Shown here piece by piece: positions 2,780-9,770 of a stretch of 64,000 nucleotides of DNA. This DNA comes from a virus. Position 1 is the stretch's first letter, and each line of letters opens with the position of its first letter. The stretch is taken from the UHGV virus genome UHGV-0171999; one strand, given 5' to 3'. The position numbers were made by a program, and so were the translations under genes. The notes below the pieces were generated by a model. That model did not search any database and was not told the DNA's origin. It worked only from the letters and a program-made list of their open reading frames with translations.

Positions 2780-3022
2780 ATGAGATTACAACGTCAGAGC
2801 ATTAAAGATTCAGAAGTTAAAGGTAAATGGTATTTTAATATCATCGGTAAAGATTCTGAACTTGTTGAAAAAGCTGAACGTCTTTTGCGTGATATGGGAT
2901 GGGAAGATGAATGCGATGGATGCCCTCTTTATGAGGATGGAGAAAGCGCAGGATTCTGGATTTATCATTCTGACGTCGATCAGTTTAAAGCTGATTGGAA
3001 AATTGTGAAAAAGTCTGTTTAA
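2780..3022 (+). CDS. hypothetical protein
   Basis: 80-aa ORF, AAGGAGA SD. Confidence 0.5.
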   Translation: MRLQRQSIKDSEVKGKWYFNIIGKDSELVEKAERLLRDMGWEDECDGCPLYEDGESAGFWIYHSDVDQFKADWKIVKKSV

Positions 3023-3032
3023 GGAAAATAAT

Positions 3033-3862
<830 letters not shown>

Positions 3863-3882
3863 AATAACACGTGGCGGAAAAT

Positions 3883-4230
3883 ATGAATTTTAATTATTAC
3901 CCTATTCTATTAGAAAAAGACGCGAAACAACCAAAATGGCAGGGTCCTCAGTTTATTAAAGGCGTCTATCAATTAGTAGTTCCTAAAGACAAGATTTATA
4001 GCAGTTGTTTCACTGAATCCGCTTGTAGTATTTTTGGTAATAGTTCTCCGTATTGGAATTTTGATATAAAACTAGATAGAAATATCGATATTTGGTTGAA
4101 AGCTATGGATATTGGTAATATCACGTTTGATGAGAATAATTATCATATTATTGGTCGATTTTCTAAGCGCGGTAAAGAATTATATTTCACGCCTGAAATC
4201 GAAAGAAAATTTGATGCTAAACCGTATTGA
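3883..4230 (+). CDS. hypothetical protein encoded in an insert between frd and td
   Basis: ORF with ATG at 3883 (track start 3871 is GTG); no recognisable motif. Confidence 0.45.
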   Translation: MNFNYYPILLEKDAKQPKWQGPQFIKGVYQLVVPKDKIYSSCFTESACSIFGNSSPYWNFDIKLDRNIDIWLKAMDIGNITFDENNYHIIGRFSKRGKELYFTPEIERKFDAKPY

Positions 4231-4274
4231 TTATTAGCTTCATAAAATGTATTATAATTTATATAAGGTACTAA

Positions 4275-5135
4275 ATGAAACAATACCAAGATTTAATTAA
4301 AGACATTTTTGAAAATGGTTATGAAACCGATGACCGAACAGGCACAGGAACAATTGCTTTGTTCGGTACTAAATTACGCTGGGATTTAACTAAAGGTTTT
4401 CCTGCAGTAACAACTAAGAAGCTCGCCTGGAATGCATGCATTGCTGAGCTTCTATGGTTTATTTCCGGTTCTACCAATGTTAATGATTTACGTCTTCGCA
4501 CTCATGGTAGTCTTATTCAAGGTAAAACTATTTGGGACGATAACTATGAAAACCAGGCTAAAGACCTAGGATATCATAGTGGTGAACTTGGTCCTATATA
4601 CGGTAAACAATGGCGTGATTTCGGTGGTGTGGATCAATTAGTTGAAACTATTGATCGTATTAAAAAATTACCAACTGATCGACGTCAAATCGTTTCAGCA
4701 TGGAATCCAGCTGAAATCAATCAAATGGCATTACCGCCCTGTCATATGTTCTATCAGTTTAATGTGCGTAATGGTTATCTTGATTTACAATGGTACCAAA
4801 GAAGTGTAGATGTTTTCTTGGGCTTGCCATTCAACATTGCCTCGTACGCTGCCTTGACGCATATTGTGGCTAAGATGTGTAATCTTATTCCCGGAGATTT
4901 GATATTTTCTGGTGGTAATACTCATATCTATATGAATCACGTAGAACAATGTAAAGAAATTTTGCGTCGTGAACCTATGGATTTATGCGAATTACAATTA
5001 AAATTTCCAGATGAATTTGATGAATGGAACACAGAATCGCAGGTATTTTGGTTGAGTCAATTCGCAAAGCCGCATAATTTTGTTCTTAACAACTACGTAT
5101 CTCACCCGCCAATTAAAGGAAAAATGGCGGTGTAA
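4275..5135 (+). CDS. td: thymidylate synthase, uninterrupted (no intron)
   Basis: 286 aa contiguous ORF; active-site region MALPPCH; full length in one frame. Confidence 0.95.
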
Positions 5136-5419: not shown

Positions 5420-5699
5420 ATATAAATCCGACTTTGATGTTAATATTCACCGTGGTACATTTTGGGGGAATTACGTCGGTAAAGATGCTGGCAGCCGGGA
5501 GGCTGCCATTGAATTATTCAAAAAAGATTTTATACGTCGAATTAAATCCGGAGAAATAACTAAAGCACATTTAGAGCCTTTACGTGGAATGAGGCTAGGA
5601 TGCACATGTAAACCAAAGCCGTGTCATGGTGATATAATAGCTCATATAGTTAACCGATTGTTTAAAGACGATTTTCAAGTTGAGGACTTATGCAATTAA
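5373..5699 (+). CDS. hypothetical protein with CxC...CHGD motif (possibly DUF4326-like)
   Basis: 108-aa ORF; motif [13 protein letters not shown]; start codon uncertain. Confidence 0.45.
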
Positions 5700-7954
5700 T
5701 TAATGTTATCAAAAGTAGTGGTGTTTCTCAGAGCTTTGACCCGCAAAAAATTATTAAAGTTTTATCTTGGGCAGCTGAAGGAACATCTGTAGATCCTTAT
5801 GAATTATATGAAAATATTAAATCATATCTCCGTGATGGAATGACCACTGATGACATTCAAACCATTGTAATTAAGGCTGCTGCGAATTCTATTTCAGTTG
5901 AAGAGCCTGATTACCAATATGTAGCTGCACGCTGTTTAATGTTTGCTCTTCGTAAGCATGTTTACGGGCAGTATGAACCACGTTCATTTATTGACCATAT
6001 TTCTTACTGTGTAAATGAAGGTAAATATGACCCTGAATTGTTGTCAAAATATTCTGCTGAAGAAATTACATTTTTAGAATCAAAAATTAAGCACGAGCGG
6101 GATATGGAATTTACTTATTCCGGGGCGATGCAATTAAAAGAAAAATATCTCGTTAAAGATAAAACCACTGGTCAAATTTATGAAACTCCGCAGTTTGCAT
6201 TTATGACTATTGGAATGGCATTGCATCAAGATGAACCTGTTGATAGACTAAAACACGTTATTCGTTTTTATGAAGCGGTATCTACTCGACAGATTTCATT
6301 GCCAACTCCTATTATGGCTGGATGTCGTACTCCAACTCGGCAATTTAGTTCATGCGTTGTTATTGAAGCAGGTGATTCGCTGAAGTCTATCAATAAGGCT
6401 TCTGCTTCAATTGTTGAATATATCTCCAAACGAGCTGGAATCGGCATTAACGTTGGTATGATTCGTGCCGAAGGTTCTAAGATTGGCACAGGTGAAGTGC
6501 GTCATACTGGTGTTATTCCTTTTTGGAAACATTTTCAGACTGCTGTTAAATCATGCTCACAGGGTGGAATTCGTGGCGGCGCTGCTACTGCTTATTATCC
6601 TATTTGGCATTTGGAAGTTGAAAATCTTCTCGTTTTGAAAAATAACAAAGGTGTAGAAGAAAACCGTATTCGTCATATGGATTATGGCGTTCAACTGAAT
6701 GACCTAATGATGGAACGATTCGGAAAGAATGATTACATTACTTTGTTCAGTCCGCATGAAATGGGTGGCGAACTTTATTATTCTTATTTTAAAGACCAAG
6801 ACCGATTCCGTGAATTGTACGAAGCCGCAGAAAAAGACCCTAATATTCGTAAAAAGCGTATTAAAGCCCGTGAACTGTTTGAATTGCTCATGACTGAACG
6901 CTCAGGAACAGCAAGGATTTATGTGCAGTTCATTGATAATACGAATAACTATACTCCGTTTATTCGTGAAAAGGCACCTATTCGTCAAAGTAACTTGTGC
7001 TGTGAAATTGCTATTCCAACAAATGACGTGAATAGTCCTGATGCTGAAATTGGATTGTGTACGTTATCTGCATTTGTGTTAGATAACTTCGATTGGCAAG
7101 ATCAAGATAAAATCAACGAATTAGCAGAAGTTCAAGTTCGTGCTCTTGATAATCTTTTGGATTACCAAGGATATCCAGTTCCTGAAGCAGAAAAAGCTAA
7201 AAAGCGTCGAAATCTTGGTGTAGGTGTTACTAACTATGCAGCTTGGCTAGCAAGTAACTTTGCTTCTTATGAAGATGCTAACGATTTAACACATGAACTA
7301 TTTGAGAGATTACAGTATGGACTCATCAAAGCATCCATTAAGCTCGCCAAAGAAAAAGGACCTTGCGAATATTATTCAGACACTCGTTGGTCTCGAGGCG
7401 AATTACCTATCGACTGGTACAATAAAAAGATTGACCAAATCGCAGCTCCAAAATACGTTTGTGACTGGTCGTCGCTGCGGGAAGACCTTAAGCTCTTTGG
7501 CATCCGTAATAGCACATTATCAGCACTTATGCCATGTGAGTCATCTTCCCAAGTTTCTAACAGTACAAACGGTATCGAGCCTCCACGTGGACCAGTCTCT
7601 GTTAAAGAATCAAAAGAGGGCTCCTTTAATCAAGTCGTGCCCAATATTGAGCATAACATAGACCTATATGATTATACATGGAAATTAGCTAAGAAAGGTA
7701 ATAAACCTTATCTTACGCAGGTAGCTATTATGTTGAAATGGGTATGTCAATCAGCTTCAGCGAATACATATTATGACCCGCAGATTTTTCCAAAAGGAAA
7801 GGTTCCAATGTCAGTAATGATTGATGACATGTTATACGGATGGTATTATGGCATTAAAAATTTCTATTATCATAATACCCGTGATGGTTCTGGTACTGAT
7901 GATTATGAAATAGAAACTCCAAAAGCTGAAGATTGCGCAGCGTGTAAATTGTAA
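5690..7954 (+). CDS. nrdA: ribonucleotide reductase large subunit
   Basis: 754 aa, same as T4 NrdA; NLCCEI active-site motif and C-terminal CAACKL. Confidence 0.95.
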   Translation: MQLINVIKSSGVSQSFDPQKIIKVLSWAAEGTSVDPYELYENIKSYLRDGMTTDDIQTIVIKAAANSISVEEPDYQYVAARCLMFALRKHVYGQYEPRSFIDHISYCVNEGKYDPELLSKYSAEEITFLESKIKHERDMEFTYSGAMQLKEKYLVKDKTTGQIYETPQFAFMTIGMALHQDEPVDRLKHVIRFYEAVSTRQISLPTPIMAGCRTPTRQFSSCVVIEAGDSLKSINKASASIVEYISKRAGIGINVGMIRAEGSKIGTGEVRHTGVIPFWKHFQTAVKSCSQGGIRGGAATAYYPIWHLEVENLLVLKNNKGVEENRIRHMDYGVQLNDLMMERFGKNDYITLFSPHEMGGELYYSYFKDQDRFRELYEAAEKDPNIRKKRIKARELFELLMTERSGTARIYVQFIDNTNNYTPFIREKAPIRQSNLCCEIAIPTNDVNSPDAEIGLCTLSAFVLDNFDWQDQDKINELAEVQVRALDNLLDYQGYPVPEAEKAKKRRNLGVGVTNYAAWLASNFASYEDANDLTHELFERLQYGLIKASIKLAKEKGPCEYYSDTRWSRGELPIDWYNKKIDQIAAPKYVCDWSSLREDLKLFGIRNSTLSALMPCESSSQVSNSTNGIEPPRGPVSVKESKEGSFNQVVPNIEHNIDLYDYTWKLAKKGNKPYLTQVAIMLKWVCQSASANTYYDPQIFPKGKVPMSVMIDDMLYGWYYGIKNFYYHNTRDGSGTDDYEIETPKAEDCAACKL

Positions 7955-8595
7955 TGAATTATCAAAAAATCTATAACGACCTAATTTCCCGAGCTCAGGC
8001 TCGGGAATCTTTATCAGAATATAAAGAGACACATCATATAATCCCTAAATGTATGGGAGGTTCTGATGATAAAGAAAATTTAGTTGAATTAACAGGTAGA
8101 GAGCATTTTATAGCTCATTGGCTTTTATGCAAAATATATGACACGCCAGGATTAAAGAAAGCTTTTGGTTTAATGTGCTTGACTGGTAAAAATCGCTCAT
8201 ATAAAATTTCTTCTCAACTATACGAATTAGGTAGACGACGTTTATCTGAAGCTGCCATAGGACGTGAAGTTTCTATAGAAACCAGAGAAAAGATAAGTAG
8301 AGCTCTTAAAGGAAGGAAATTTACCAAAGAGCATTTAGCTCGCATGAGAAAACCTAAAACCGAAGAAGCTAAAAAGAATATAGCTGCTGCTAAAGTCGGC
8401 GTGCTTAATCCGATGTATGGTACAATCTCTCCGACAAGAGATGTTCCTCATACTAAAGAAACTCGTGATTTGATTTCTTTGAGAACTAAGCAAGGTACAG
8501 AGTATCCGCCTTGTCCGCATTGTGGCAAGAAAGTTAATAAAGGCAATGCTTTAAGATGGCATTATGATAAATGTAAATTTAAGGATTCTAAATGA
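7954..8595 (+). CDS. mobE: free-standing HNH homing endonuclease (mobE-like)
   Basis: N-terminal HNH motif ETHHIIPKCMGG...NLVELT..EHF.AHWLL; start overlaps nrdA stop (TAATG) and stop overlaps nrdB start (ATGA); T4 mobE occupies this position. Confidence 0.75.
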   Translation: MNYQKIYNDLISRAQARESLSEYKETHHIIPKCMGGSDDKENLVELTGREHFIAHWLLCKIYDTPGLKKAFGLMCLTGKNRSYKISSQLYELGRRRLSEAAIGREVSIETREKISRALKGRKFTKEHLARMRKPKTEEAKKNIAAAKVGVLNPMYGTISPTRDVPHTKETRDLISLRTKQGTEYPPCPHCGKKVNKGNALRWHYDKCKFKDSK

Positions 8596-9770
8596 GTACA
8601 GTTTTTAATACATCCCCTGTTAATATTTTAACTGAGCCGATGTTTTTTGGTTCTGGATTGGGTTTAGCTCGATATGATATTCAACGACATAGAGTATTTG
8701 AAGAACTTATTGAGAAATCTTTATCATTTTTCTGGCGTCCTGAAGAAGTAAACTTAATGATGGATGCTGCGCAATTTAACAAGCTTCCTCAGTATCAGCA
8801 AGATATTTTTACTAATAACCTGAAGTATCAATCACTTTTGGATAGCATTCAGGGTCGTGCACCGTCTGCTGTACTTATGTCATTAATTTCAGACCCAAGC
8901 CTTGATACATGGGTTGCTACGTGGACTTTTAGTGAAACTATTCACAGCCGTTCATATACACATATCATGCGAAATCTTTATACTGATCCATCGAAGGTAT
9001 TTGATGAAATTGTATTAGATGAAGCTATTATGAAACGTGCTGAATCCATTGGACGTTATTATGATGATGTTCTGATTAAAACCCGTGAATGGGAAAATGC
9101 TAAAGAATTTGTAGAACTAGCTAAAGAATCTCCTGATGCTGATTTTCGTTTAAATCGAGCTATTAAACAAGAAGCCGAAGCTAAACGTGCTTTAATGAAA
9201 TCTCTTTACCTCTGCTTGCATGTAATCAACGCATTGGAAGCTATTCGTTTTTATGTATCTTTCGCATGTACCTTTAACTTCCATAAGAACATGGAAATCA
9301 TGGAAGGTAATGCCAAGATTATGAAGTTCATTGCTCGTGATGAACAGCTTCACCTTAAAGGCACTCAATATATTATTCGTCAACTTCAACTTGGCACTGA
9401 TGGTGATGAATGGGTTAAAATTGCTCAAGAGTGTGAACAAGAAGCAGTTGATATTTTCATGGAAGTTAACCGTCAAGAAAAAGACTGGGCAGTTCATTTA
9501 TTTAAAGATGGTGATGTTCCTGGATTAAATACAAATAGCATGTGGAGCTTTATTGATTACTTAACTGTATCTCGTATGAAGCAGTGCGGTCTTCCGTGCC
9601 CAATTACCGATGCTCCGGTTAAACATCCGTATCCTTGGATTCGTGAATATCTTAATTCTGATAATGTTCAATCCGCGCCACAAGAAGTAGAACTGTCATC
9701 TTACCTTGTTGCACAGATTGATAATGATGTTGATGATAAAGTTATGATGAGTTTTAAAAAATATTTTTAA
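8592..9770 (+). CDS. nrdB: ribonucleotide reductase small subunit, uninterrupted (no intron)
   Basis: 392 aa contiguous; ferritin-like di-iron motifs (EAIRFYVSFA, ARDEQLHL). Confidence 0.95.
   Translation: MSTVFNTSPVNILTEPMFFGSGLGLARYDIQRHRVFEELIEKSLSFFWRPEEVNLMMDAAQFNKLPQYQQDIFTNNLKYQSLLDSIQGRAPSAVLMSLISDPSLDTWVATWTFSETIHSRSYTHIMRNLYTDPSKVFDEIVLDEAIMKRAESIGRYYDDVLIKTREWENAKEFVELAKESPDADFRLNRAIKQEAEAKRALMKSLYLCLHVINALEAIRFYVSFACTFNFHKNMEIMEGNAKIMKFIARDEQLHLKGTQYIIRQLQLGTDGDEWVKIAQECEQEAVDIFMEVNRQEKDWAVHLFKDGDVPGLNTNSMWSFIDYLTVSRMKQCGLPCPITDAPVKHPYPWIREYLNSDNVQSAPQEVELSSYLVAQIDNDVDDKVMMSFKKYF

Follow-up and report, generated by a model that had tools for sequence, protein, structure and literature searches.

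A conserved small gene at the frd–td junction of T4-like phages that is absent from T4

The interval between the dihydrofolate reductase gene frd and the thymidylate synthase gene td was found to hold a bona fide early-operon gene, read in the same direction as frd and td, in a viral DNA stretch of 64,000 nucleotides (UHGV virus genome UHGV-0171999; the whole stretch is termed the window below). The gene encodes a protein of 115 amino acids, which hundreds of public genomes already list as hypothetical. In the genus of T4 the frd/td junction is normally occupied by a conserved small gene, and the textbook overlap of frd and td is the minority state there, which corrects an expectation centred on T4. 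The encoded protein could well be a small non-enzymatic binding protein serving as a conditional accessory factor, a reading that we put forward tentatively from its conservation and from fold matches below threshold.

Results

The frd–td interval and its open reading frame

The window is a Tequatrovirus genome segment with Shigella phage Shfl2 as the closest record (97.8% identity over positions 3200–4400). The features of the region are the following:

3278–3862, + strand: frd (dihydrofolate reductase), 194 amino acids, upstream neighbour; stop codon TGA at 3860–3862
3856–3870, + strand: left copy of a 15-nt direct repeat, TAAATGAAATAACAC, spanning the frd stop codon and resembling the td start (ATGAAACAATAC)
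3863–3882, + strand: 20-nt spacer with a purine-rich ribosome-binding stretch (GGCGGAAAA), preceding the start of the open reading frame (ORF)
3883–4230, + strand: unnamed gene, 115 amino acids, PHROG 1928; start codon ATG at 3883, stop codon TGA at 4228–4230
4231–4274, + strand: 44-nt spacer between the ORF and td, with the td ribosome-binding site (AAGG)
4272–4286, + strand: right copy of the 15-nt direct repeat, TAAATGAAACAATAC, containing the td start codon
4275–5135, + strand: td (thymidylate synthase), 286 amino acids, downstream neighbour, without the group I intron

The gap between the two genes (3863–4274) measures 412 bp and contains a single long ORF on the + strand. An initial annotation of the window had placed the frd stop codon at 3860–3862 and the td start codon at 4275 with 412 bp between them, and these coordinates were confirmed, as was its translation of the ORF, which starts MNFNYYPILLEKDAKQPKWQGPQF. 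It had also stated that frd and td overlap in T4. This is correct, the T4 genes (frd at 145109–145690 and td at 143235–145112) having 4 nt in common. The final codons and stop codon of frd (GTATATAAATGA; compared C-terminal residues TESVYK plus stop) are identical in T4, RB69 and VR5.

The presence of an ORF in the gap therefore stands as initially annotated, but its proposed length of 116–119 amino acids does not. An in-frame GTG at position 3871, upstream of the ATG at 3883, would yield a protein of 119 amino acids with four extra residues. It is used by none of the homologues. Because the annotated orthologues (Shfl2p237) and all homologues start at the ATG at 3883, the protein has 115 amino acids. 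The spacer at 3863–3882 carries a 1-nt indel in Bas37 and is therefore non-coding.

Coding signal and conservation

The ORF protein matched the PHROG 1928 profile with an E-value of 8.4e-36, residues 4–111 aligning to positions 2–125 of the 126 profile positions. By tblastn it was matched in 581 phage records, 363 of them at 90% identity or above and mostly Tequatrovirus, and the other 218 below 60%. The protein is 100% identical in T2, RB14, RB3, AR1 and PP01. Changes between the window and four relatives were counted as follows:

Window and T2: synonymous 10, nonsynonymous 0, dN/dS 0
Window and Bas37: synonymous 13, nonsynonymous 1, dN/dS 0.015
Window and Mosigvirus SF: synonymous 26, nonsynonymous 9, dN/dS 0.056
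Window and metagenomic L014: synonymous 46.2, nonsynonymous 62.8, dN/dS 0.12

This pattern of substitution indicates that the ORF is coding and under strong purifying selection. The initial annotation had allowed that coding signal might be lacking in related genomes; with dN/dS between 0 and 0.12 it is clearly present.

Among Tequatroviruses dS was 0.08–0.24 for the ORF, up to 0.47 for frd and up to 0.93 for td. The low value for the ORF suggested an ORF-specific sweep, which was dismissed by a sliding-window comparison. High divergence was found only in mosaic patches at 3476–3655 and beyond 4435, and the ORF shares the 92–100% backbone identity of its immediate flanks and is not unusually uniform. 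The two patches, in frd and from 4435 in td, show 55–77% identity to T2 and Bas37, and the backbone around them, the ORF included, stays at 92–100%. The frd patch of the window is shared with Shfl2 and the td patch is not; the latter is shared with Bas37.

In public records the gene is named "hypothetical", "putative homing endonuclease" or "putative glucose-1-phosphate adenylyltransferase". The latter two names are unsupported. None of the searches backs the adenylyltransferase name found in some records, and the endonuclease name is treated below.

Transcription and signals in the spacers

No terminator-like site was found on the + strand between 2300 and 5800, a range that includes the span from frd to nrdA, and the gene is therefore probably co-transcribed with its neighbours. 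The spacer at 4231–4274 holds a 9-of-12 match to the sigma-70 consensus and, by eye, a MotA-like box with one mismatch. A td promoter in this 44-nt spacer is not supported, since the transcription start would fall within the ribosome-binding site of td and 29 nt of the spacer are missing from Mosigvirus SF. An RNA element was rejected. The sole Rfam match was the insect lncRNA model Yar_1 (3914–3985, - strand; 25 bits compared to a gathering score of 50), which was judged spurious. The purine-rich stretch before the ORF was considered as a relic of the 3' end of a donor frd and discarded, its similarity being that expected of a ribosome-binding site.

Presence and absence among T4-like phages

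T4 has no such ORF at the frd/td junction, and a profile search of the T4 genome in all six frames gave no copy anywhere (best E-value 0.32). The T4-type empty junction was found in 35 records, mostly T4 and its close kin, so that T4 is the minority state among Tequatrovirus records. RB69, Dhakavirus VR5 and NC-G, and most of the approximately 145 Mosigvirus records share the T4-type overlap junction (TATAAATGAAACAATACC).

Two Mosigviruses, SF (L017, 1651–1998) and NHEP29 (L018, 1651–1998), carry a compact copy between frd and td with 94% amino acid identity to the window protein; about 140 other Mosigvirus records have an empty junction. In both, the ATG of the ORF overlaps the frd stop codon, and only 15 nt remain before td. 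Relative to the window, SF lacks 24 nt at the junction of frd and the ORF in addition to the 29 nt of the downstream spacer. The flanks in SF and NHEP29 are RB69-like to within approximately 10–40 nt of the gene, and their Frd is 59–60% identical to that of the window.

The initial annotation described the segment as a lineage-variable insert. That the gene varies between lineages is borne out by the 363 records of at least 90% identity that carry it, and by the 35 T4-type records, most Mosigvirus records and Dhakavirus, which do not. The gene is not a peculiarity of the lineage of the window phage; most T2-like phages carry it. "Insert" is one possible reading, but the T4 state can equally be a precise deletion of 416 bp between direct repeats.

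A small family with a stable position

When 1.84 billion representative proteins were searched exhaustively with HMMER, only 22 clusters emerged. Twenty are stand-alone members of 95–116 amino acids; the remaining two, the long matches P0021 and P0023, are spurious, consisting of low-complexity repeats. To these, a profile search of 5.8 billion proteins contributed nothing beyond small proteins of 115–148 amino acids, all unnamed. Neither profile search gave any domain fusion or named relative. PHROG 1928 is a small family confined to T4-like phages, and no further copy was found elsewhere in the window.

Family members occupy the space between frd and td, in the orientation of those genes, in the window, Shfl2, T2, Bas37, SF and several metagenomic contigs (L014, L015 and L022), as well as in Jiaodavirus Mineola, Kanagawavirus PEi26 and Entb_45, Roskildevirus Cronus, Gelderlandvirus STML-198 and Serratia phage CHI14 (Winklervirus). 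In the other genera the gene is present between frd and td in every member examined. Its start and stop codons in those genera usually share nucleotides with those of frd, td or neighbours, which implies translation coupled with frd and td. In L020 the member precedes td, and a truncated upstream gene of 30 amino acids, which is unannotated, overlaps it. One divergent member, P0024 (L021, 1248–1577), is an exception to the frd–td position; on a metagenomic contig of 13 kb, it shares an overlap with the beginning of a nucleotidyltransferase gene of the RlaP family.

Identity to the window in four of the other genera was:

Jiaodavirus (Mineola): ORF 32%, Frd 44%, Td 74%
Kanagawavirus (PEi26): ORF 43%, Frd 46%, Td 76%
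Roskildevirus (Cronus): ORF 31%, Frd 45%, Td 72%
Gelderlandvirus (STML-198): ORF 30%, Frd 48%, Td 73%

The identity of the ORF was thus somewhat under that of Frd and far under that of Td. The gene family has long resided in the frd–td interval of at least seven other Tevenvirinae genera.

Many of the phages from the other genera have a second ORF in the interval, which is a distant paralogue with an insertion of approximately 20 residues after the QKKW motif. The tandem paralogues match each other with pairwise E-values of 2e-5 to 3e-3, and with 99% probability and an E-value of 3.5e-18 by hhalign. L022 may carry three family copies. A remnant of the second paralogue past the stop codon of the window ORF (MLNRIDY plus stop) was considered and rejected, since the similarity lies within the C-terminal codons of the ORF itself and is not independent.

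Direct repeat and gain/loss history

The two repeat copies match at 13 of 15 positions, are identical over the first 9 nt and are spaced 416 nt apart. The 9-mer occurs 10 times in the window compared to 3.1 expected and is a common gene-junction motif, so the repeat is notable for its position rather than for its rarity. T4, RB69 and VR5 have the sequence of the window minus everything between the repeat copies, which is 416 bp in the T4 alignment.

Within Tequatrovirus the T4 state would most simply be a precise deletion. The T4 frd allele nests among alleles from ORF-bearing phages, with frd dS of 0.145 between T4 and Bas37, 0.175 between T4 and T2 and 0.237 between T2 and Bas37. The ORF is as diverged as the flanking backbone. 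T4 also keeps only a start remnant of an ORF of 81 amino acids on the other side of frd.

The latter ORF (3033–3278, + strand) is located between frd.1 (DUF5417, 2780–3022) and frd, and its stop codon overlaps the frd start codon. Its ribosome-binding site and first few codons are all that T4 has kept, and T2-type phages and outgroups retain the ORF. Weak homologues were found directly upstream of frd in Kanagawavirus Entb_45 (E-value 4e-4) and in Cronus. It has no Pfam or NCBIfam match.

An earlier gain by Tequatrovirus is suggested by the empty junction being common to three genera, by the resemblance of the left repeat to a leftover td start, and by the ORF being 63–66% identical to those of L014 and L015 with Frd only 47% identical. 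Frd and Td of L014 are 58% and 90% identical to those of Kanagawavirus, compared to 47% and 80% to those of the window. This disagreement between the relationships of the ORF and those of frd and td indicates lateral transfer. Lateral movement of the gene certainly happens, given the 94% identical copies of Mosigvirus SF and NHEP29 within otherwise RB69-like flanks.

A history in four steps fits all observations. The junction would have been empty in the ancestor of the T-even core; Tequatrovirus would then have acquired the gene with duplication of the td start; the T4 sublineage would have excised it precisely through that repeat; and a secondary transfer would have brought it to a few Mosigviruses. 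Alternatively, there may have been three independent deletions.

Repair initiated by I-TevI and SegG co-converts up to approximately 2 kb of flanking sequence (PMC2790892). The end of the ORF is 594 bp from the td intron insertion site, and the expected I-TevI cleavage site is approximately 570 bp away. The ORF would therefore lie within co-conversion reach, and crosses with T4-type phages could erase it. Bas37 has both the td intron and the ORF. In td of the window, the region expected to be recognized and cleaved by I-TevI (approximately 4780–4850) encodes the same amino acids as in T4 with clustered synonymous changes. Among these are whole codons exchanged (CGC TCA to AGA AGT) a short way upstream of the insertion site (approximately 4824). 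These changes might affect cleavage by I-TevI.

Dispensability of the gene in Bas37

HIDEN-SEQ used a saturated transposon library of Bas37 (KarlGJung) (10.1101/2025.11.20.689424). The Bas37 orthologue, bas37_0070, is 99.1% identical to the window protein. According to the tables of that report, 34 of its 36 TA sites were hit and it was classed as non-essential, with a mean insertion read count on K-12 of 372 compared to 117 for frd and 29–31 for td (10.1101/2025.11.20.689424). We compared hosts for four uropathogenic strains out of six tables, those for CFE336 and Mokosh being left out. Relative to K-12, the log2 fold change for bas37_0070 was 0.40 on CFT073, 0.18 on CFE299, -0.09 on CFE303 and 0.16 on CFE331, each with an adjusted p of 1.0, the names CFE303 and CFE331 being assigned from the sheet order in the file description (10.1101/2025.11.20.689424). 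bas37_0070 is not among the hits listed in the main text of the report (10.1101/2025.11.20.689424).

By these tables the phage can dispense with the gene on K-12 and the four clinical E. coli strains, in agreement with the accessory status that it was initially given. The four clinical strains are rich in defence systems, and the lack of a conditional phenotype on them argues against a broad counter-defence role, as far as these few hosts go.

In the same tables, insertions in td and the intron endonuclease of Bas37 are depleted on K-12 and relatively enriched on CFT073, CFE299 and CFE331 (log2 fold change 1.0–2.6, several significant; supplementary file 8, later strain names by sheet order). 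From these values the cost of losing the phage thymidylate synthase appears to be host-dependent.

Predicted structure and conserved residues

An AlphaFold2 model built with 23 family members (pLDDT 92, pTM 0.84) predicts a barrel-like domain rich in beta structure, in which residues 68–76 form the only helix and residues 86–104 a long C-terminal hairpin. Q16, W19, G27, G91, K95 and G97 are invariant in the 23 members, and L9, Y29, N79, F93 and F102 nearly so. When both subfamilies are taken together W19, G27, G91, K95 and G97 are invariant, and Q16, L9, Y29 and F93 nearly invariant. The family motifs are KQxKW, HG(I/V)Y, GN and IIGRFxKxGxxxxF. No Asp, Glu or His is invariant in the family alignments, which argues against metal-dependent catalysis.

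Neither the ORF protein nor any of the 23 members matched Pfam or NCBIfam, and the initial statement that the protein holds no recognizable motif was thereby upheld. The PDB gave no sequence match and no significant fold match, known anti-defence proteins (restriction inhibitors and signal sponges such as Tad1, Tad2 and Acb2) included. Matches in BFVD were only to uncharacterised proteins of T4-like phages, among them the tandem paralogues. PDB fold matches below threshold were mostly to OB-fold domains that bind DNA or RNA (HIN, Teb1, S1, SSB, RPA and RuvA domain I). We regard this resemblance of the model as a lead, not a finding.

Discussion

Function of the encoded protein

As a small binding protein, the reading that we tentatively favour, the product would act by stoichiometric binding and not by catalysis. 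The likely binding patch would consist of Q16, W19, Y29, F93 and K95 together with K18 and R92, two residues that most members share, and the partner would be a nucleotide, a nucleic acid or a protein of the host or the phage. The protein would serve as a host-interaction or fitness factor, useful only in some hosts or conditions, and would not be a core part of thymidylate synthesis. The tandem paralogues suggest homo- or hetero-oligomers. The net charge of approximately +2 (pI 8.5) is weak for a nucleic-acid binder and speaks against the binding reading. The near-invariable frd–td placement, with Frd only approximately 45% identical, could mean a tie to the flanking enzymes and speaks against a purely accessory one.

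Such a tie is the substance of the foremost alternative, in which the protein is an auxiliary partner or regulator of Frd and Td. It could be a small subunit or adaptor that binds one or both enzymes or tethers them in the T-even dNTP-synthesising complex, or it could adjust thymidylate synthesis by binding folate, nucleotide or mRNA. We consider this possible but on balance unlikely. The placement between frd and td in many genera with overlapping start and stop codons, and hence coupled translation, is as expected of a partner, as is a divergence that tracks Frd (30–43% identity for the ORF and 44–48% for Frd), and W, Y, K and R, which are among the conserved residues, would be fitting in a pocket for folate or a nucleotide. 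However, T4, RB69 and Dhakavirus have Frd and Td but no copy of the gene, and Bas37 with insertions in the gene is fully fit, whereas insertions in td and frd are depleted. Moreover, P0024 is located elsewhere, at the RlaP nucleotidyltransferase gene, and T4-like gene order is conserved genome-wide, which makes synteny weak evidence.

A more specific proposal, to which we give a rather low probability, is that the family represents a new fold of small phage binding proteins forming homo-oligomers or, in phages with tandem paralogues, A/B hetero-oligomers, which would either sequester a nucleotide-type ligand or nucleic acid against host defence or dock to Frd and Td and so rewire the supply of thymidylate. 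If this were true, the defence that is defeated would be one absent from the strains tested so far, and the repeated gain and loss at the junction would reflect selection by particular hosts.

It is very improbable that the gene is selfish and homes into the frd/td junction, be it as a free-standing homing endonuclease or as some other mobility factor. The BASEL records annotate it as "putative homing endonuclease", and the BASEL paper states that comparative alignment aided such annotations (PMC8594841), which suggests that the label came from presence and absence, not from domain evidence. Presence or absence at one exact site between two conserved genes is indeed what homing would give. The same holds for a gene 94% identical in two Mosigvirus genomes with Frd at only 59–60%, and for the lateral transfer seen in the 63–66% identity of the ORF to L014 and L015 against 47% for Frd. 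However, we found no GIY-YIG, HNH, LAGLIDADG, PD-(D/E)xK or other nuclease motif at E-values up to 10, no nuclease fold among the structure matches and no invariant Asp, Glu or His that could be catalytic, while the same Pfam search detects HNH and NUMOD3 at 7954–8595. Unlike homing genes, the ORF is found at frd–td in every member examined of the other genera and has tandem paralogues, and its sequence is not unusually uniform compared to the immediate flanks.

The gene at 7954–8595 (+ strand) is itself a free-standing HNH/NUMOD3 homing endonuclease gene of 213 amino acids, located between nrdA (5690–7954) and nrdB (8592–9770). At this position T4 has the shorter mobE.

A chance ORF or decaying remnant in a non-coding spacer, compatible with T4 managing without the whole segment, is practically without probability and was ruled out by the coding-signal tests, as the substitutions are nearly all synonymous over hundreds of genomes, length and motifs are kept in homologues at 26–66% identity, and the AlphaFold model is confident.

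Significance of the locus

This is a known, uncharacterised accessory gene of modest interest, and assigning a function to it would raise its importance. It is one of the few small T-even genes with a position that is stable over deep time beside two enzymes of nucleotide metabolism, and its family is without functionally known relatives or a significant structural match, yet under strong purifying selection across many genera. The lack of a significant structural match, the tandem paralogues, the gain/loss junction and the deep conservation at a single locus are noteworthy, and would be no surprise to a T4 specialist. The locus is a clean natural case in which a short direct repeat bounds a segment that was gained or lost precisely. 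Lying approximately 570 bp from the expected I-TevI cleavage site, it could be used to measure the homing-driven co-conversion of neighbouring accessory genes.

Comparison with known systems

Like the T-even genes for free-standing homing endonucleases (segG, mobE and, in the window, the HNH gene at 7954–8595), the gene is small, wedged between conserved genes and patchy among close relatives, and it shows signs of having moved laterally between Tequatrovirus and Mosigvirus. It differs from them in encoding no nuclease motif, fold or catalytic residues, and in being present at this position, with tandem paralogues, in every examined member of the other genera.

Small T-even proteins are reported to block host defences, T4 nrdC.1 acting against Septu and Bas37_0203 against Druantia III (10.1101/2025.11.20.689424). 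The protein described here is likewise small and restricted to phages, has no known domain, is not essential in the laboratory and is present in some close relatives but not in others. Unlike these proteins, bas37_0070 has no conditional requirement on CFT073, CFE299, CFE303 and CFE331 in the tables of that report.

The OB-fold domains of SSB, RPA, S1, HIN and Teb1 are small beta-barrels with one helix between strands, which the predicted model of the ORF protein may share, given its fold matches below threshold. The conserved residues of the ORF protein are aromatic and basic.

The closest counterparts are the hypothetical proteins of T2, T6, RB14, RB32 (RB32ORF229c), Shfl2 (Shfl2p237), AR1 (ar1_242) and Bas37 (bas37_0070). 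These are the same gene, PHROG 1928, likewise located between frd and td, and the protein is 99–100% identical in most of them.
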